DNA of 64,000 nt from Gemmatimonadota bacterium (GCA_965116475.1 OZ220691.1:96001-160000); one strand, 5' to 3'; numbered from the stretch's first letter, positions 26,402-34,509 are shown. Numbers and translations are program-made. The notes: generated by a model not told the origin, from the sequence alone.

Positions 26402-26518
26402 CCTTCGACTCTCCAGCTTCTCATTCCCTCTTGAAAACGATCGGTCACGCCCCCCTTGATCTTGCCAATTCGAATCGCCTGACACCAGTTAACCGCCGTA
26501 GCACCCCTCCCCACCGTC

Positions 26519-28159
26519 CTAACCACCTGGACCATGGCGTCTCTGCCATTCGAACTCGTCGAGTCCGATCCGAGATAGGTTCCTTGCAACTCGATGTGCA
26601 AGGCGCTGCGCAAACGACGTCTTGAGATCGCCAACCCAAATGAACTGTTCCCCCGATTCGCTCTCAAACATCCAGACACCACCGTCAGCCTCGCTCACCA
26701 CTGTACGCGTAGCTAGGTCAGGTCGAAAAGAAATTGTCGTGATGTGAGAAGGTTTGGCGCTTACCTTCAGGCAGATCTCATCGCCAGCTGTATCCCTCGT
26801 TACTATGTCGAAAATAGAGGTGTCGCGAGACAGCGGTACAAAAAGGAACTGCGTGAGCTCTGTTAAACGGACAGCGTCACAAGCCGGCTGGATGCATATC
26901 AGGTATTCCCCTCCCCGCTGAACAATGCTCCCGAGGCCAAGTTTCGCTCGATAACTTGGCGCAACAGAACGCGGTTCGCGAGCATGCGCACTGACACGAG
27001 CAAACTCCCGATGCGCAGCGACACCGCGCTCCAGGTCGTCGCTCAAGAGCAAGTACAATCGCTTATGGAGCTTCTTTTGTGACTCCGCTCCACTCGCGAC
27101 ATCGGGAATCGCCGCAAGGCCTAATGGGCCTTCGTCGATCAGGTTCATGATATCGGACACAGACACGATCCTAGAACCCTCTTCTGAATCTGTCCGGGTC
27201 ATGAGTCGGAACTCTACCCCCTCGCCTTCACGCTCGTTAAGCGCTGCCTGAAGGGCATCGCGACCGGCGTAAGCTGAGCCAATCATCTGCCCGTCCAGTA
27301 CCGCTAAGAACTCGGAAGCTACAAGATCGACTGCATAATCTTCGGCATCCTCCGGCCACTCGAGCAAAAGCCGATGGGTCACGTACGGGCCGTCAAGTTC
27401 ACGGTGAAACCGGGCGAGCATTCGGTGCGTATCGTCTCGGATCGCGGCGACGCACGCAAGAGCCACGTTTCCGAGGAGTCCCTTTCCGATTTCGACGAAT
27501 TCGTCGATCAACCGATCAGCCAAATCCCGCTCTTCAATCCCGCCGCTGATAGCCGAACTGCGTCCCTTACGGATGAACAGTATCCTTGTCTGGTCTTTTG
27601 CCAAAGCGAGCACGTTGCCGGGTCGTTCCAGCTGACTAAACCCGTCCAGATCATCGTTCACTGAAGCAGAGATGGTGTTTAGATTTGGCTCAGCTGTGTA
27701 GACGACAACTAATCGCAGCCTCCCACCCACCTTCGCATCGTCTTCAATGAGATCGGAAATGATACTTGTCGCTCGGTCTCCTTCGTCTCCAAGCTGCCAA
27801 TCAAGAATCACGATGTCAGCTCGCCGCGACGCACGTAGTGTCTCGGTCGTAGCGTCTTCCGCCGCGTTCGGCGCTAGTACTGTGCAGACCACACCGCGCG
27901 CCGCGAAACTCGTCATGAGGGTCCTCGCATCTAACGGGCCACCTGTGGGCCCCAACTCACCCCCCGTGACCGGATCCGCCATGTCATCTCCGCTGTCGAC
28001 AGCATCCACGGCCTCACCGACAGGCTCCTGTACGGTAGTGGGTTCGTCCGGGCGACCCATGACTGCGCGATCATCCAGTACGACCACGGTTTGAAGAAAC
28101 CGCTCCACTACCGTCCGAGACAGATCTCCAAACGCTGGGAGCGATGCGGAGTGACTCAA
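26519..28159 (-). CDS. Response-regulator receiver domain protein with uncharacterised C-terminal domain
   Basis: Receiver residues are present: VVVLDD, ADIVILDW (phospho-Asp), VVVYT and FIRK. No HTH. C-terminal GSIV...YLICIQPACD...RIGLDEFEW. TTG start 2 nt after the kinase stop. Confidence 0.8.
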   Translation of the reverse strand: MSHSASLPAFGDLSRTVVERFLQTVVVLDDRAVMGRPDEPTTVQEPVGEAVDAVDSGDDMADPVTGGELGPTGGPLDARTLMTSFAARGVVCTVLAPNAAEDATTETLRASRRADIVILDWQLGDEGDRATSIISDLIEDDAKVGGRLRLVVVYTAEPNLNTISASVNDDLDGFSQLERPGNVLALAKDQTRILFIRKGRSSAISGGIEERDLADRLIDEFVEIGKGLLGNVALACVAAIRDDTHRMLARFHRELDGPYVTHRLLLEWPEDAEDYAVDLVASEFLAVLDGQMIGSAYAGRDALQAALNEREGEGVEFRLMTRTDSEEGSRIVSVSDIMNLIDEGPLGLAAIPDVASGAESQKKLHKRLYLLLSDDLERGVAAHREFARVSAHAREPRSVAPSYRAKLGLGSIVQRGGEYLICIQPACDAVRLTELTQFLFVPLSRDTSIFDIVTRDTAGDEICLKVSAKPSHITTISFRPDLATRTVVSEADGGVWMFESESGEQFIWVGDLKTSFAQRLAHRVARNLSRIGLDEFEWQRRHGPGG

Positions 28160-28161
28160 GG

Positions 28162-31158
28162 CTATCCATCCTTCCGCCGCGGCCCTCGCGGCTGTTCTGC
28201 TTCCGAATCTTCTTTCGTGGGAGAGATGCGGAATTGCGCTCCTTCCCCCTCAACGAAGCGGTCCAGCTTCAGCTCGTAACCGATTTCCTTCAGTATCTGC
28301 CTCGAAATGTACAAGCCCATGCCGCGGCCGCCCGGGCGTCTTGTGAACCCCATTTCAAATACGGACGCCGCATCTCGCGGAGGTATCCCCGGCCCGCTAT
28401 CACCCACGAGAAACGCACCACCAGTCGCATCCAGTTCAATTACCCGCTCACGCCCCCGATCTCGACTCGACACCCAGAAAATCGCGTTATCCACGAGGTT
28501 CACAAAACAAGGATAGAAGGAGGAGGGGAATCCAACGATCTCTGCCTCGCGAAACGCATCGGTAGCCGACAACTCAACTTCATGACGCTTTAGGCGTTGC
28601 CCAAAGAGGTCCATAAGAAAATGATACACGTCGCTACCTCGAATCCGGACGCGACGACGTTGCAGTCGTCGATCCAGCGGCGTGAAGAGGGTGAGATATC
28701 CATCGAGATGGTCGAAGTTCGCTCGAATGTCCCGATAAACTATACTCAACTTTTCGTTAGCGTCGGACCACGGCTTAAGGAGTCTCAAATTCGTTCTTAT
28801 GCCCTGGATGGCGCTCGCAAATTCATGATGTACGATACCAAGAGCCATCCCTACCTGCGCCAACTGGAGTCCTGCACTCTCCCTCTCACGTAGAGCTTCC
28901 AATTCCTCCTCCAGAGCGTCCGTCACTTCCGGCAGCTCGAGACCCTCCTGCGTTCCGAGGAGCCTGACGTGCTCTCGTAGGCTCTCCAGGTTCGCCGTCT
29001 CGACATCTCCGACTTCGGCGATTCGCCGTTCCAACTGAGTGCGCACGCTGTCGAAGTCCGCCGCTGCCAGCGAACTCGTATCGGTCCTCTCGAAATCACT
29101 CAACGTCTCGCGGATGGCATTGTGCACAGCCGCCAACCGATCTCGAGTCTCGGACACCACACGCCCCTGGGCTTCCCGTAGTTCGGCCCGCGTGTCACGG
29201 CCGAGGAACGTCGCCCTGTCCAACTGTGCGTCGCTTGCATCCGAAAGGACTCGGCTCAGGCGTCGGCGGTAATCGATATCCGCGCGCAATCGCGTCGTCT
29301 GTCTTGAAACGATGGCGGCAAGTTCCACCGCAGCTGGCTCCCAGACTTTCGTCGTAAGTCGACTTCGTTCGAGCCTGTACGCTTCCCAGTCCGATTGCAT
29401 TCTACGTGTTAGACCAAATCCCCGCGGCCGCGACACCCAATATTCCTCTTGAATCGCGAGCAAGGCCGAATGAGATTCACTCTCAAGATCTAACATGTGT
29501 TGAGCCAGATCTTCACGACCTTCATGCACAGCAAGTCCGTCGAATCGATTCCTCGCCTCCTCCAGAAGCTGCGCAGTGGCGGCCTCAGGCTCACGAGCGT
29601 TAACCGATTCAAAGAAGGCGTCAAGATCTCTTCCAAACTTCGCGCGGCGGACGCGCACCTGTTTCTCACGCCGCCGACGGAGACGCTCGTTCCGCTCCAG
29701 GTCGTCACGCGTTGTTAGGAAGTCCTCGGCATGCAACCCTCCCACGCGAAAGAACTCTCCCGCCAGCTGTACAAAAAAATGCTCCAGAAGGCGCTTCAAC
29801 TGGCGATAGGCAAGGTTTTCGCGAAATCCCTCGCGGCCGGCCTTTTCAACCAGATTTGGGTTTTCCTCGCGGGTGATGTCGATCACACCAAAGATTCGCC
29901 GATAGGAAAAGTAGTAATACGATGCGCTTTTTGTGCGTCGTTGCTCGATATTCAGGAAATCATAATCTGAATTACCGTATGGGAGTATCCGGATGCCGTC
30001 ACGATAAATGTATAGGCCGCCGATGCGATTGAGCTTCGCCTTAAGCCGAGCGTGATCTTCCGGGGGCATTCTCGTGACTCGAGGCTGGCCTTGAACGTAA
30101 GCGAAATTGATCTTCAGCGGCCCACAGCGAAGCCGCCTGCCCCGCGCTTCTGGCCACGGCAGAAGATACTCGACGGGATCTCTCCCATACACTTGGACCG
30201 TCCCCCGAAACTGGCCGAAATCATCGAAGGATCCAGACACGTGATGATCAGCTTTCTCAAACTCCTCCGGCGTAAAGAAGGCCGATCCCGCGATCCGTTC
30301 GTATATTGTTCCGTCCAACGCGTGATCGCGGAAACGTGCCTGAATTGCCTGAGTTCGGCGTCCAGAGGCCATGGTGTTAGTGAAGCCAATTAGAACCTTG
30401 ATGAGTGCTGGAGCGATATCGCTATTTGGGGACCCATCGATATCCTCGGGTAAGGTCTCCTCCGTCGGCAAGATGATGAAGTGGGTCCCACAACCTTCGT
30501 CGATCAGTGTGGGACCCCGTGGCAGCGTCGGATATAGCCCACGCGGGTCAAGGTCGAGATGAGCAAGCTCGGCCAGTATCGGCGTAAGGTGGGACTCAGG
30601 AAGATCGCGAGCCAGGGTAACTACGTTGCTATGTACTTCAGCGACCAGTTCGGCAACTAGAGCACGAGATGGCAGAGTGCCTCCCGGTAGCGCGCGTATA
30701 GGTATGTGGATGTCACTCAGATCTACGCCGGGAAGACGGAAAACACCCCAGTTGATGAAGGCTACTACGAGTTCATCCGGCTCGGCTTTGGAACGTGTAA
30801 GGACAAGGACTTGTGGTCCGATTGCAGCTATGGCGAGACGACCAATGCCCTTCTCGCCCATGATTGGCCGCAGGTCCTGGTCGGGGTCTGAGGGAGGCGG
30901 GTTCAAGCCGAATCCCGCGGCTAACTTACTCTCGGTCCCAAGAGTAAGCCATCGGTCGACAAAGTCCTGGTAAGACATGCCGATCCCATCGTCTCGAAGG
31001 ACGAAGAGACCGGAGCTCCGAAAGAAATCAACTTCGACCCGATGGGCATAGGCATCATGGGCGTTCTTGAAGAGCTCGCTGATCGCGGTTGGCACACCAG
31101 CGATCTGCTGTCTACCCAGCATGTCAAGAGCACGAGCACGAACGCGAATGCCTGGCAT
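28162..31158 (-). CDS. MORC/GHKL ATPase - coiled coil - histidine kinase fusion
   Basis: N-terminal GHKL (ISELFKNAHDA, DDGIGM, GEKGIGR) and S5-like region (GLYIYRDGIRILPYG...EKAGREGF). Long coiled coil, H-box IVHHEF, N-box NLVDNA, G1 DSGPGI, and F/G2 FEMGFTRRPGGRGMGLYI. Confidence 0.88.
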   Translation of the reverse strand: MPGIRVRARALDMLGRQQIAGVPTAISELFKNAHDAYAHRVEVDFFRSSGLFVLRDDGIGMSYQDFVDRWLTLGTESKLAAGFGLNPPPSDPDQDLRPIMGEKGIGRLAIAAIGPQVLVLTRSKAEPDELVVAFINWGVFRLPGVDLSDIHIPIRALPGGTLPSRALVAELVAEVHSNVVTLARDLPESHLTPILAELAHLDLDPRGLYPTLPRGPTLIDEGCGTHFIILPTEETLPEDIDGSPNSDIAPALIKVLIGFTNTMASGRRTQAIQARFRDHALDGTIYERIAGSAFFTPEEFEKADHHVSGSFDDFGQFRGTVQVYGRDPVEYLLPWPEARGRRLRCGPLKINFAYVQGQPRVTRMPPEDHARLKAKLNRIGGLYIYRDGIRILPYGNSDYDFLNIEQRRTKSASYYYFSYRRIFGVIDITREENPNLVEKAGREGFRENLAYRQLKRLLEHFFVQLAGEFFRVGGLHAEDFLTTRDDLERNERLRRRREKQVRVRRAKFGRDLDAFFESVNAREPEAATAQLLEEARNRFDGLAVHEGREDLAQHMLDLESESHSALLAIQEEYWVSRPRGFGLTRRMQSDWEAYRLERSRLTTKVWEPAAVELAAIVSRQTTRLRADIDYRRRLSRVLSDASDAQLDRATFLGRDTRAELREAQGRVVSETRDRLAAVHNAIRETLSDFERTDTSSLAAADFDSVRTQLERRIAEVGDVETANLESLREHVRLLGTQEGLELPEVTDALEEELEALRERESAGLQLAQVGMALGIVHHEFASAIQGIRTNLRLLKPWSDANEKLSIVYRDIRANFDHLDGYLTLFTPLDRRLQRRRVRIRGSDVYHFLMDLFGQRLKRHEVELSATDAFREAEIVGFPSSFYPCFVNLVDNAIFWVSSRDRGRERVIELDATGGAFLVGDSGPGIPPRDAASVFEMGFTRRPGGRGMGLYISRQILKEIGYELKLDRFVEGEGAQFRISPTKEDSEAEQPRGPRRKDG

Positions 31159-32235
31159 TCAGCCGTCGGCTTGCTTGGCAAAGGAGTCGAAATGAGCTCG
31201 GATCGCCTCGCCGAACCGGCGCGCCAACAGCACTGGCACGGCGTTCCCAACCTGTGTGGCCATGGAAGCAAAGCTGCCCCTAAACACAAAATCCCGCGGA
31301 AACGTTTGTAAACAGGCAGCCTCTCGTACGCTCAGGGCGCGGTTCTGGATGGGATGGCCGAACCGTCCGTTAGAAAGACTGACGCAGCGGGTGGTAAGGG
31401 TGCTGGCTGGGCGGTGTTTACTCAAGCGACCGTAGACGTCGGTATGCCCGGCGTGGCCCCGGTGGCAAGGAAGAACCAAGTCCTCTGGCCAATCTCTCCG
31501 ATCACCTCCTTCAGGAGTGCTCTCGATACGTCTGAGGTTCAACGGAGAAAGGGCTGCGGCCCGATGGTTGGGCACTTCGTCATCCCTCCCGCCCGCCGGA
31601 ATCGGAGGCAAATCGCCGATCCACTCCCATACTGTGGAGTGCGGAGCCTTACCATGATGCTCGCCGTGTGTAGGAACCGGCAGCGTGAATGGTCCGAGTT
31701 GACTGGCGGTCATCACCAAGCGACGGCGAGTCTGCGGCACTCCGTAGTCGAGAAAATCCACTACATCGTGGGCAACATCGTAGCCAAGCTCACCGAGCAG
31801 GTCGAGAAAACGGCCGATCGGCCCATCGGACGGTTCGATGCGTTGGATGCCGGGGACGTTCTCCAGGAATACGTACTCTGGGCGGAAGCGACGGACGAAC
31901 CTGTGGAGTTCGTCAAGCAGCGATGCTCGAGCGTCGGATTGTGATTTCTTGCGATTCTGTTTGGAGAAGGGCTGACACGGTGCGCAGGCCGAAAACAGGA
32001 GAGGGTGGTCCCGCTGACGGACCAGATATGGTTCCAGGTCCGATGTCGGAACTTGACGAATGTCTCGGCAGATGAAGTGAGCTTCAGGGAAGTTGGCCCG
32101 GAATGTCGTCGCCGCCTCCACGTCCATATCGATGCCCACGAGAACATCCATACCGGCCTCCCGAAGACCAGCGCTTGTTCCTCCGCAGCCGCTGAAAAAA
32201 TCTACTACCTGTGCCGGCCTTGTTGGCTCATCCAT
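31159..32235 (-). CDS. DNA (cytosine-5)-methyltransferase
   Basis: Motif I DFFSGCGG, IV APCQPFS, VI LENVPG, VIII PQTRRR, IX LSVREAACLQTFP and X QVGNAVP. The stop TGA directly abuts the kinase ATG. Confidence 0.95.
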   Translation of the reverse strand: MDEPTRPAQVVDFFSGCGGTSAGLREAGMDVLVGIDMDVEAATTFRANFPEAHFICRDIRQVPTSDLEPYLVRQRDHPLLFSACAPCQPFSKQNRKKSQSDARASLLDELHRFVRRFRPEYVFLENVPGIQRIEPSDGPIGRFLDLLGELGYDVAHDVVDFLDYGVPQTRRRLVMTASQLGPFTLPVPTHGEHHGKAPHSTVWEWIGDLPPIPAGGRDDEVPNHRAAALSPLNLRRIESTPEGGDRRDWPEDLVLPCHRGHAGHTDVYGRLSKHRPASTLTTRCVSLSNGRFGHPIQNRALSVREAACLQTFPRDFVFRGSFASMATQVGNAVPVLLARRFGEAIRAHFDSFAKQADG

Positions 32236-32455
32236 TCGGGTCACCCTCCGCATCCAACGATGGTAGGCTGAGGCGTGGCTGTGCGGCTAACGCCTCCATT
32301 GAGAGTGACCAAGAGTCGACCAACCTGGAAGGTCCACGCAGGTCTACGGTACACGTCCGGTCCCGGCGGGCGCGGATGCGTTCAATTGGTTCGGCAGCGC
32401 CCTTGCCCCTCGCCGCCGCAATCTTGTTCCGCCTCCACCGACGTCGAACGCTCAT
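32228..32455 (-). CDS. Possible 75-aa basic ORF overlapping the methyltransferase start
   Basis: GGAGGTAACCTAAGGACC-ATG at 32455; the stop overlaps the MTase ATG by 8 nt. No recognisable domain. Confidence 0.3.
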   Translation of the reverse strand: MSVRRRWRRNKIAAARGKGAAEPIERIRARRDRTCTVDLRGPSRLVDSWSLSMEALAAQPRLSLPSLDAEGDPNG

Positions 32456-32627
32456 GGTCCTTAGGTTACCTCCATCTTCCAAGACAACAGGATAGTGCGC
32501 ACCACAACTCACGGCTCCCGAGCAGCCGTGAATGGTCGACAACCCAAATCGGACGATTGGGTTCCCCGCGTTGTATGGGATCGATCCGCCCGACACCAAG
32601 AATATAGCGAACATCCGCCTCCGGGGC

Positions 32628-34292
32628 TCAGTCGAGCGCGGGGTGCCGCGTGTGCCAGTCCGTCGCCGCCTGGAAGGCGTGCGCCACGCTCAGGATCTTG
32701 TCGTCGGCGAACAGGTCGCCGATGAGCGTCGTCGTCAGCGGCTGCTCCGCCTCCTCGCCCTCGGGCCCGAGCGGGCCGAAACCGTACTGGACGACGGCCG
32801 CCGGGTGTCCCGTTTCGTTGGTGAGCCCCACCTCTCCCGAGCCGGTGGCGAACATGTCGAAGCCGTCCATTGCCTCGGCCATGCGCTTCATCACGATGAG
32901 GCGCCGCCGCTGCGCGTGCACGTAGTCCATCGCCAGACCCTCGCGTCCGCGGCGGAAGCGCGTGAAGTCGCGCTCCTCCACCTCGCTGAGCCCCTCCGGC
33001 ACCGGGGGCAGTTCCCCGCCCGGTGCTACGTGGAAGTCGAAGGCCGACGACGACTCGGCGCCCAGCGAACTCGCCGCCTGGGCAGGCAGCTCGCGCATGA
33101 GCCGCGGCCGCGCCCCGAGTTCCTCCAGCTTCTCGACGAAGGAGTGCGGCGCGTCCTCGGTGTATCCGATGGAGAGCGCACCCAGGTCCGGGTTGCGCTC
33201 GAAACGGAACGGGGTCGTGACGGAGGCGGGGTCCTTCTCGTCCGCGCCGTGGATCTCGTTGAACACGAGCGCGCAGTCCTCGATCGTGCGGCACATGGGG
33301 CCCGTCTTGTCCATGCTCCACGAGAGCACCATGCCCCCGTAGCGGCTCACGCGTCCGAAGGTGGGGCGGAGGGCGCTCAGCCCGTTGCGGCGGCTCGGGG
33401 AGACGATCGACCCGCGCGTCTCGGTCCCGATCGAGAAGGCGACGCAGCCCGCCGCCGTCGCCGAGCCCGGCCCGGCGGAAGACCCGCTCGATCCCCAGGC
33501 GAGGTTCCACGGATTCAGCGTCCGGCCGCGGTACCAGCGGTCGCCCCGCGCGAACTCTCCCGTCGCGAGCTTCGCGATGAGCACGGCGCCCGCCGCGTTC
33601 AGCCGGCGCACGACCTCCGCATCCTCCTCGATCATCTGCGTCTGGAACGCGGCCGAGCCCCACGTCGTCCGCGCCCCGACAGTCGAGAAAAGGTCCTTCA
33701 CGCCGTAGGGGATCCCGTGCAGGGGCCCGCGCCATTCGCCCGCGCGGATCTCGGCTTCCGCCTGTTCCGCCTCTTCCCTGCCTCGGTCTTCCAGGATCGT
33801 CACCGCGCACAGCAGCACGGGGTCGTACCGCTTCATGCGCTCCATGTAGATGTCGAACAGTTCCGTCGGCGAGACCCGGCGCTCCCTCACGAGGGCCGAG
33901 AGCCGGTGGACGGGGAGAAAGGCGATCTCCTCCTCGGAGGACGGCACGGGGCCCTCCCAGGGTGCGACGTCGATCGAGGTCTTCTCGAACGGGTTCATCC
34001 CGGCGCGCCAGTACTTTTCGAGCAGCGCCCCCGTCCCGCCCGGATACGCCTGGAACTGCAGGGCCGGCGGCTCCCCGTTCCCAAGCGGGATGACGTCCTC
34101 CTGCACCGCTTCGCGCAGTCCCTCGAACTCCGGAGCATCGGGGGCGAGAGGGATCGCCTCCGGAGCGGCCATGAGCGAGCGCGGATCCAGAGCCCCCGCC
34201 GCAGTCGCCGCAGCCGCCGCCTTCAGAAACCCGCGCCGACCAAAGCCGCTTTTCGCAACGTCCGCACCTCTCCTGTCGAGCCTTTCGGACAC
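32628..34292 (-). CDS. Amidase signature family enzyme with Tat signal
   Basis: GFGRRGFLK leader, GPLHGIPYGVKD, GSSGSSAG and IGTETRGSI (Lys-cisSer-Ser triad). Confidence 0.9.
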   Translation of the reverse strand: MSERLDRRGADVAKSGFGRRGFLKAAAAATAAGALDPRSLMAAPEAIPLAPDAPEFEGLREAVQEDVIPLGNGEPPALQFQAYPGGTGALLEKYWRAGMNPFEKTSIDVAPWEGPVPSSEEEIAFLPVHRLSALVRERRVSPTELFDIYMERMKRYDPVLLCAVTILEDRGREEAEQAEAEIRAGEWRGPLHGIPYGVKDLFSTVGARTTWGSAAFQTQMIEEDAEVVRRLNAAGAVLIAKLATGEFARGDRWYRGRTLNPWNLAWGSSGSSAGPGSATAAGCVAFSIGTETRGSIVSPSRRNGLSALRPTFGRVSRYGGMVLSWSMDKTGPMCRTIEDCALVFNEIHGADEKDPASVTTPFRFERNPDLGALSIGYTEDAPHSFVEKLEELGARPRLMRELPAQAASSLGAESSSAFDFHVAPGGELPPVPEGLSEVEERDFTRFRRGREGLAMDYVHAQRRRLIVMKRMAEAMDGFDMFATGSGEVGLTNETGHPAAVVQYGFGPLGPEGEEAEQPLTTTLIGDLFADDKILSVAHAFQAATDWHTRHPALD

Positions 34293-34509
34293 GCTCCCCT
34301 CCTGTAGCCAAATAACGTCAGAGGGTCACACTGCGGGGAGATGCCGGAGCCGACAAGCCTGCGAATGCGGGTGGAGTGAGGCCGGGGCGCGCGCGACCAC
34401 TTCGGTACATCCGACTTCATCCCAACGTCGTCCCTGCCACAGGAGGGTGATCCGCCGCCCCGGCTTCAGTGGCTGAGACGCGCGCGGTTGGCAGAACGTT
34501 GCTTCGCTG

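Follow-up and report, generated by a model that had tools for sequence, protein, structure and literature searches.

A methylase-linked HEF_HK/Response_reg_2 cassette in a Gemmatimonadota genome and the predicted folds of its receiver output module

Two-component-like elements in which a soluble histidine kinase and a receiver protein are encoded next to a C5 cytosine DNA methylase were described in silico, without experiments, by Bellieny-Rabelo, Pretorius & Moleleki in 2021, and that work is the basis of the Pfam families PF19191 (HEF_HK) and PF19192 (Response_reg_2) (PMC8011034). We analyzed such a cassette in a stretch of 64,000 nucleotides from a Gemmatimonadota bacterium (GCA_965116475.1 OZ220691.1:96001-160000; the whole stretch is called the window hereafter), where three genes on the minus strand encode a C5 methylase, a 998-aa kinase and a receiver protein. 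According to the accessible text of the 2021 survey, linkage of the kinase and receiver genes reaches 91.6% over 644 regions, the HATPase_c_3 + HEF_HK + HATPase_c architecture predominates (174 of 222), C5 methylases lie upstream, vsr genes are frequent, and the likely origin of the kinases is from paraMORC ATPases. The same text gives no known domain past the receiver domain and names no effector (PMC8011034).

The closest tested analogues of the window cassette are Detocs and Ambrosia. In Detocs (10.1101/2023.01.24.525353), as described in the accessible part of the report, a kinase phosphorylates a receiver with a C-terminal, cell-stopping effector; the outcome is abortive infection, and both the His and the Asp are required. 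Unlike the window cassette, Detocs has a TPR sensor, no methylase, an effector that is a PNP ATP-nucleosidase and, as its third gene, a 'buffer' receiver. Neither a Detocs-type PNP effector nor a buffer receiver gene was found in the window cassette (Pfam searches and gene content of the island that carries it). Nor did PADLOC point to a sequence relation: the receiver has no match, and the kinase matches REase_II models in its GHKL part only.

Ambrosia of Pseudomonas aeruginosa (10.1101/2025.09.30.679545) resembles the window cassette in that a DNA methylase, a histidine kinase/HATPase and a REC protein are encoded in one cluster. In the accessible part of its description, Ambrosia is validated as a five-gene system (XRE regulator, N6-adenine methylase, kinase, a REC protein said to have a helix–turn–helix of the winged type (wHTH), and HNH nuclease), its phospho-acceptor Asp is needed for defence, and it does not behave as a classical restriction–modification system. 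Judged by the published description only, the window cassette differs from it: its methylase is of the C5 type, genes for an XRE regulator or an HNH nuclease are absent from the insertion, and the output is another one.

The N-terminal ATPase of the kinase has relatives of another kind. The MORC and paraMORC ATPases of restriction–modification contexts (Iyer, Abhiman & Aravind 2008, PMC2292703) share with the window a GHKL domain of the HATPase_c_3 type, a linkage to cytosine methylases and a proposed sensing of unmodified DNA, and the GHKL-nuclease proteins (VcSduA, PMC12137116; Tiamat, 10.64898/2026.09.30.754977) have an N-terminal HATPase_c_3-type GHKL domain like that of the window kinase. 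In the accessible parts of these sources, such proteins pair or fuse with helicases and nucleases, whereas the window combines the GHKL domain with a histidine-kinase core and a receiver; the terms 'receiver' and 'two-component' are absent from the searchable text of the 2008 paper. Fusions of paraMORC to HEPN RNases in restriction–modification neighbourhoods are also on record and, in the text available, are proposed to act like the PrrC anticodon nuclease.

The window cassette belongs to the HEF_HK/Response_reg_2 two-component-like family tied to C5 DNA methylases, since PF19191, PF19192, PF13589, PF02518 and PF00145 all score above their cut-offs. It has the 'group 1' architecture (HATPase_c_3 + HEF_HK + HATPase_c) in a soluble protein, with a C5 methylase upstream and an adjacent receiver; nothing essential differs from the 2021 elements, to which the window adds a resolved output module. 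A preliminary description of the locus, made from the sequence, had presented it as a candidate phosphorelay-controlled defence system in which a two-component pair would serve as the restriction arm. The architecture, the intact residues and the methylase–kinase–receiver linkage across phyla stand. The novelty was overstated: Pfam families for these proteins and an in silico account of the trio date from 2021, phosphorelay defence is established (Detocs, Ambrosia), and the central idea had already been raised in outline in 2021. A literature search found no experimental study of the family beyond the 2021 paper and passing mentions, subscription journals being mostly outside its scope; this agrees with the preliminary description, which knew of no experimental mechanism for the kinase-fused type.

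The receiver protein and its output module

The receiver protein comprises the following parts (coordinates are those of the window).

26564..26947, minus strand: receiver residues 405-532, beta domain followed by a C-terminal helix, predicted fold MazF/CcdB/Kid-like (structural search, Foldseek)
26987..27532, minus strand: receiver residues 210-391, helical domain, predicted homodimer interface (AlphaFold2 (AF2) model, two-copy prediction)
27563..28099, minus strand: receiver residues 21-199, Response_reg_2 domain with D29, D30, D120, T155 and K198 (PF19192, 7.2e-32)

What is new here is the division of the output module into a predicted dimerising helical domain and a domain with a putative MazF/CcdB fold. 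The module, i.e. the C-terminal 342 residues of the receiver, was folded alone with 47 homologues and gave an AF2 model with a predicted local distance difference test (pLDDT) score of 92.8. In the VIA-align search against representatives, the top 11 rows were all MazF/CcdB/Kid toxins (Z 8.7-6.2), whose matches cover approximately model residues 201-328 (receiver residues 405-532); the rows after them were unrelated, with Z at most 5.7 and a poor root-mean-square deviation (rmsd). The best match was MazF-mt3 (Z 8.7, rmsd 2.5, 94 of 105 residues) and CcdB scored Z 7.7-7.8, values to be read against the Z of 7-8 that, per the tool, commonly tops the list when a model has no genuine counterpart. 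Upon re-alignment of the Foldseek candidates, all 50 entries shown were of the MazF/CcdB superfamily (Z 8.7-6.8). Foldseek itself gave the same toxin chains a probability of 0.92-1.00, with E values of only 0.01-0.08, and returned nothing at E ≤0.001 for the whole receiver and module models. The toxin fold was recovered by two aligners on two models.

The beta domain has four invariant residues (G410, C422, C427 and W508). Its predicted fold is that of the MazF/Kid/PemK endoribonucleases and of the gyrase poison CcdB, with no sequence similarity. In contrast to these type II toxins, it has no separate antitoxin gene, and in the protein chain it follows a receiver and a helical domain predicted to dimerise. 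On the strength of the models, a MazF/CcdB fold is likely for this domain, while a toxin function is only suggested. Searches with the output module found nothing in NCBIfam or PADLOC, only unnamed clusters in the ESM Atlas and two chance-level rows in the PDB sequence profile. The CcdB family had 0 matches in 201 genomes of the class, a search run only for a comparison sequence. Four PemK/MazF-family loci are present in the host genome, none of them near the cassette.

The helical domain has no clear fold match in the structural search (best Z 5.7 at rmsd 14.6). It carries conserved polar residues (R241, H245, D256, H262, R263 and E283), and most of the module's invariant polar residues lie in it. 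When two copies of the module were predicted together, the ipSAE score was 0.80, compared to 0.00 for the best control, with a partner pLDDT of 81, and three dimer runs agreed on at least 88% of the contacts; the ipSAE mark is reached by 20 of 30 solved homo-pairs and by 1 of 23 single chains. The predicted interface is confined to the helical domain (model residues 21-199). Seven of the eight conserved positions of that domain fall within it (R241, L248, D256, H262, R263, E283 and G344), as would be expected if the dimer contact is conserved or if the two chains form a shared site along the dimer axis. HEPN was considered for the helical domain, which contains R-x3-H and H-R motifs, but is not supported: the spacing departs from the HEPN rule (R-x4-6-H), and there was no HEPN row in the Pfam or fold searches.

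The module is widespread. Its profile matches 1,825 cluster representatives (50% identity clusters); it is C-terminal in 133 of the 150 listed matches (proteins of 516-669 aa, with about 190-320 residues before it), and the other 17 are shorter proteins.

Upstream of the module, the receiver domain scores well above its threshold (E value 7.2e-32; cut-off 27) and contains a disordered insert (residues 39-72). The canonical receiver residues that the preliminary description had reported as kept are indeed so: all 43 receiver sequences share D29, D120 and K198, and conservation is at least 90% for D30 and T155. The fold of the domain matches response-regulator receivers (Z 11.9, rmsd 2.5, 119 aligned), and the AF2 model of the full protein has a pLDDT of 87.4. 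The stored database version of the receiver (P0004; 487 aa, 100% identical over 89% of the query) starts at Met60, which would remove the first beta strand with its DD motif. In the homologues (535-548 aa), however, the alignment begins at residue 3-10, which favours the TTG at 28159 as the start.

It is reasonable to read the sequences as a His-to-Asp relay that ends on an effector, and the predicted folds and dimer make the receiver's own output module the candidate effector. In the scheme that we favour, with a probability of about 0.5, methylation marks self, the GHKL kinase phosphorylates the receiver, and a built-in toxin-like effector replaces the restriction nuclease. The methylase would mark host DNA as self, and the GHKL ATPase together with the middle domain of the kinase would act as an intracellular sensor, most plausibly of unmodified or foreign DNA, or else of another infection cue. 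The triggered kinase would autophosphorylate on H778 and the phosphate would then pass to D120 of the receiver, a putative dimer held through its helical domain. Phosphorylation would free or re-orient the C-terminal output, i.e. the invariant R/H/D/E cluster of the helical domain and the MazF/CcdB-fold domain. As an in-built toxin, this output may cleave RNA or poison a target in the manner of gyrase poisons, and so halt the growth of the infected cell, thereby taking the place that the restriction endonuclease has in an ordinary restriction–modification system.

The predicted dimer also speaks for a regulatory two-component system, in which the kinase would sense infection or the state of the DNA, and the phosphorylated receiver would bind DNA via its helical dimer and switch transcription of the methylase operon or of unlinked defence genes. 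Response regulators are mostly dimeric transcription factors, and the dimerization of the helical domain is confidently predicted. In the accessible description of Ambrosia, reporters put in place of cassette genes are induced on infection and a wHTH is ascribed to the REC protein; the 2021 authors, in the text available, suggest signalling that controls restriction–modification systems (PMC8011034). However, no helix–turn–helix or winged-helix domain was found in the output module (Pfam, 47/47 members; fold-search rows), the MazF/CcdB fold is no known DNA-binding output, and what moves is a set of three genes that includes neither a nuclease nor any other target for induction. We rank this transcriptional reading, the main rival, below the toxin reading and consider it unlikely, because the cassette offers nothing to induce and a DNA-binding domain could not be detected.

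The kinase and the methylase

The kinase and methylase genes encode the following features.

30766..31158, minus strand: kinase residues 1-131, N-terminal GHKL (Bergerat) ATPase of the HATPase_c_3 type (PF13589, 8.7e-12)
29725..30765, minus strand: kinase residues 132-478, highly conserved middle domain, candidate sensor or transducer (column conservation)
28879..29724, minus strand: kinase residues 479-760, poorly conserved, helix-favouring linker (conservation and composition)
28657..28857, minus strand: kinase residues 768-834, HEF_HK DHp domain with the phospho-acceptor H778 in H-E-F (PF19191, 6.8e-27)
28219..28512, minus strand: kinase residues 883-980, HATPase_c catalytic domain containing the N, G1, F and G2 boxes (PF02518, 2.8e-15)
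31159..32253, minus strand: C5 cytosine DNA methyltransferase, 364 aa (PF00145, TIGR00675, PADLOC MTase_II)

The two ATP-binding modules first noticed in the 998-aa protein were both recovered, as HATPase_c_3 and as HEF_HK/HATPase_c. The HATPase_c_3 match spans residues 24-126 of the window kinase, and PF13589 is present in 52/52 kinase homologues; PF19191 scores 94 bits in the window kinase, against a cut-off of 24.1. In an alignment of 68 sequences (the window kinase and 67 homologues), the residues of the N-terminal ATP site (E28/N32, D56xGxG60 and G101-G106) and those of the kinase core (H778-E779-F780, N887/D890/N891, G922, F934 and G944/G946/G948) are at least 97% conserved. Likewise, the absence of a transmembrane segment held: no 19-residue window of the kinase reaches transmembrane-like hydropathy, the maximum being 1.29. 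In its accessible part, a 2026 preprint reports PF19191 as lacking the T/N at H+4 that is tied to phosphatase activity. The H+4 residue of the window kinase is S782, and the absence of the phosphatase-linked T/N would be in keeping with a trigger that runs one way.

Conservation in the kinase is highest over the N-terminal 480 residues, with a mean column identity of 59% over 52 sequences from many phyla. By contrast, the linker (residues 479-760), a candidate for the coiled coil of the preliminary description, has a column conservation of 0.30-0.51 and consists of 57% A/E/L/R/Q/K and 5% P+G. The middle domain has a set of invariant residues (D304, H305, R390, Y394, D400, E405, R408, R420 and E438-F445). 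For residues 132-478, the part to which the S5 label of the preliminary description would apply, there was no Pfam match, including Morc6_S5, in 52/52 homologues, no PDB sequence-profile match, and only unnamed clusters in the ESM Atlas.

In sequence comparisons, the model most similar to the GHKL domain is that of NCBIfam for the BbrUII/HgiDII restriction enzymes (62 bits, against a cut-off of 550), a likeness limited to the N-terminal part of the kinase that ends at residue ~127; the matches to PADLOC REase_II models are confined to the GHKL part as well. The best 60 of the 173 PDB profile matches of this domain were the ATPase domains of Hsp90/HtpG/GRP94 and MutL/PMS2, at E 1.6e-5 and weaker, plus one C-type lectin row. 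They cover the ATPase domain only, and no MORC chain is among these 60. The GHKL module thus appears to be paraMORC-like in the sense of the 2021 authors, MORC proper being a candidate. The C-terminal ATPase matched histidine-kinase CA domains in the PDB search, at 4e-9 and weaker.

These likenesses raise the possibility that the GHKL protein is the restriction component itself: its middle domain would cut or trap unmodified DNA, and the kinase–receiver part would tune or report this activity. The resemblance of the GHKL domain to the BbrUII/HgiDII family and to the REase_II models points in this direction, as does the position of the middle domain, with its invariant D, H, E and R residues, in the best-conserved part of the kinase; GHKL-nuclease defence proteins do exist (GHKL-Shedu and Tiamat, as described in the accessible parts of their reports). 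However, the likeness to BbrUII/HgiDII stops at residue ~127, at 62 bits where 550 are needed, and no nuclease family was found in residues 132-478 (Pfam, 52/52 homologues; PDB profile), so that we regard this alternative as very unlikely.

In the toxin reading, the methylase provides the self mark, and its gene is in good order. PF00145 (DNA_methylase) matches at 6.2e-52 and covers positions 2-322 of 324; TIGR00675 (dcm) matches at 6e-43 and PADLOC MTase_II at 6e-88. The motifs FSGCGG, PCQ, ENV, QTRRR and GNAVP are readable in the translation and the catalytic motif set is complete, as the preliminary description had it. Its extent for the gene was right except for the start, which it placed at Met7 (32235): the first ATG of the open reading frame (ORF) is at 32253, and Met7 is the alternative. 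A vsr gene stands next to the cassette in 42 of the 80 loci described below, which argues that the methylase is active. The host genome has two vsr genes outside the window (near 1.84 and 2.91 Mb), none near the cassette. The three-gene island contains no cognate restriction endonuclease gene, as a type II restriction–modification system would, and sequence searches of the kinase and the receiver (Pfam, NCBIfam and PADLOC) turned up no nuclease family. The 'restriction arm' of the preliminary description may therefore be the wrong picture.

The island and the distribution of the family

The cassette lies on an inserted island, part of which is non-coding.

26408..32627, no strand: inserted island of 6,220 bp, GC content ~0.57 (blastn against four same-genus genomes, and GC profile)
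32254..32627, no strand: upstream non-coding stretch within the insertion, presumed promoter region

The three ORFs are all on the minus strand, at 31159-32253 (364 aa), 28162-31158 (998 aa) and 26519-28159 (546 aa, TTG start). The methylase stop (31161-31159) abuts the kinase ATG (31158) with a gap of 0 nt, and the kinase stop (28164-28162) is followed by the receiver TTG (28159) after 2 nt, exactly the junctions first described. The low-GC block among housekeeping genes was also borne out: the GC profile is at 0.55-0.60 over 26.5-32.5 kb and at 0.66-0.73 on either side, and the neighbouring genes encode ordinary products (a beta-lactamase-fold and a sortilin/BNR protein, a Na/Ca exchanger, NAD kinase and a RecN-like protein).

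In addition to the three genes, the island contains 374 bp upstream and ~110 bp downstream, and nothing else. It is missing from 4/4 same-genus genomes fetched: in blastn comparisons the alignment breaks off after 26407 and resumes at 32628, and the empty site of these relatives has ~30-60 bp between both flanks. A receiver of the Response_reg_2 family is encoded in 3 of 36 genomes of the genus, and the other two copies are only 32-35% identical, a low identity that points to separate acquisitions. Given the clean 6.2-kb insertion and this patchy distribution of divergent copies, the cassette is a self-contained mobile module gained by horizontal transfer. No integrase, tRNA, or terminal direct or inverted repeat was seen at the island. 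In the non-coding stretch, two overlying ORFs have no Pfam match. Scans of the island for the sigma-70 consensus (0 sites, 2.4 expected) and for terminator-like sites (7, 5.5 expected) were uninformative. To the right of the island (window 32628-34311), a gene of ~590-600 aa is kept in 36/36 genus genomes and has no Pfam family on either strand; second copies of its central 0.5 kb, 70-73% identical, are present in many genus genomes, at 519889-520476 in the host genome.

The preliminary description had proposed a survey of the gene neighbourhoods of homologues. In a survey of 185,579 genomes (one per species), we confirmed 206 relatives, spread over many bacterial phyla and one archaeal metagenome-assembled genome (MAG), and kept the best 80 as loci. 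The order methylase > kinase > receiver on one strand was found in 70 of these 80, in agreement with the linkage initially proposed; the methylase is downstream on the opposite strand in five and upstream on the opposite strand in one. Four loci have no methylase, two being at contig ends, one having a kinase cut by an ISL3 transposase and one being apparently intact (L001). Among the genome relatives of the receiver, that of L001 (6988-11641, in a Vicinamibacterales MAG) is closest, at 52% identity; upstream there are ankyrin-repeat and PQQ-dehydrogenase genes instead. The recurrent flanking gene forms a single cluster, present in 42 of the 80 loci, and the four members scanned were Vsr. No recurring nuclease gene was found among the flanking ORFs clustered from the 80 loci, so that any effector must sit within the kinase or the receiver.

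The mobility of the cassette is also what a selfish addiction module, or epigenetic checkpoint, would exhibit: loss of the cassette or failed methylation would be sensed, and the toxin-like output would kill or arrest the cell. Such killing or arrest would stabilise a mobile methylase cassette, in keeping with the compact, cleanly inserted and patchily distributed (3/36 genus genomes) element seen here and with the toxin-like fold of the beta domain, and post-segregational killing is established for type II restriction–modification systems (discussed in PMC8011034, in its accessible text). However, the same evidence fits defence, and both roles can coexist; moreover, L001, with no methylase nearby, speaks against any methylation-keyed trigger. 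We judge addiction as the cassette's role to be distinctly unlikely.

Closer inspection of one bacterial order gave the same gene set. Around a Pseudomonadales MAG, PF19192 occurs in 5/401 genomes of the order and PF19191 in 8/401 genomes of that MAG's genus at E ≤0.001 (6 above cut-off). Seven further loci from that order and genus all consist of C5 methylase, kinase and receiver, three with vsr; no N6 methylase or HNH gene, sought as an Ambrosia-type gene set, was found in these seven. In one locus of that genus (L128, 1176-10411), the trio is directly downstream of a McrBC-type pair (AAA_5 + McrBC); McrBC restricts 5-methylcytosine DNA and is an odd neighbour for a cytosine methylase.

Several single loci deserve mention. 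A Methanosarcina MAG contig (L020) carries the full trio, with a kinase 43% identical to that of the window, which reflects either archaeal reach or a mis-binned contig. In Hymenobacter rubidus (L039, 4604-13152), the cassette lies between a RelA/SpoT-domain gene (upstream) and a phage-type integrase gene (downstream). Decayed copies were also seen: in L034 (6276-9974), the kinase is cut at its N-terminal half by an ISL3 transposase, and in L129 (5706-7423), the receiver is split into ORFs of 216 and 357 aa. The plasmid collection gave two records with a distant match, one being an IS5-flanked remnant; this cassette remnant, on a P. syringae plasmid (L119, 6632-8735), lies beside an IS5 transposase.

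Weighing the toxin reading

Several observations weigh against a built-in toxin as the output of the relay. The best structural score, Z 8.7, is barely above the 7-8 usual for models with no match, hhalign gave a probability of 0.07 for the beta domain against F-plasmid CcdB and 10 MazF homologues, and Pfam searches of 47/47 members (E up to 10) found no PF02452 or PF01845 and no consistent family. The predicted dimer does not involve the beta domain; MazF and CcdB act as dimers through their shared fold. Neither the kinase nor the receiver is represented by a PADLOC model, and the island is surrounded in the host genome by housekeeping genes, not by a defence island. L001 has an intact kinase and receiver and no window-like C5 methylase in its 21.6-kb locus (other methylase types were not searched), a configuration that a cell could hardly tolerate if the trigger were its own unmethylated DNA. 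Ambrosia, which is possibly a relative, appears, in the accessible part of its description, to act by transcriptional induction without host toxicity (10.1101/2025.09.30.679545). Finally, the toxin likeness is one of fold only, and the whole functional scheme is a proposal from genes and models.

A more specific version of the toxin reading is a nuclease-free counterpart of restriction–modification, an epigenetically keyed abortive-infection switch in which the GHKL clamp would read the missing cytosine-methylation mark on incoming DNA and phosphorylation of the receiver would unleash the tethered MazF/CcdB-fold toxin. This version is doubtful and we put it forward tentatively. If true, it would provide the first MazF/CcdB-fold toxin under phosphorelay instead of antitoxin control.

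The result for the window is mostly a correct annotation of a known cassette, together with a structural lead on its effector. The family to which the cassette belongs is large and widespread, and it is known from computation alone as far as the literature searches reach. If its output is a phosphorylation-gated toxin, the family would offer a tractable model for the reading of DNA state by GHKL/MORC-type ATPases and would join restriction–modification, two-component signalling and toxin–antitoxin biology.

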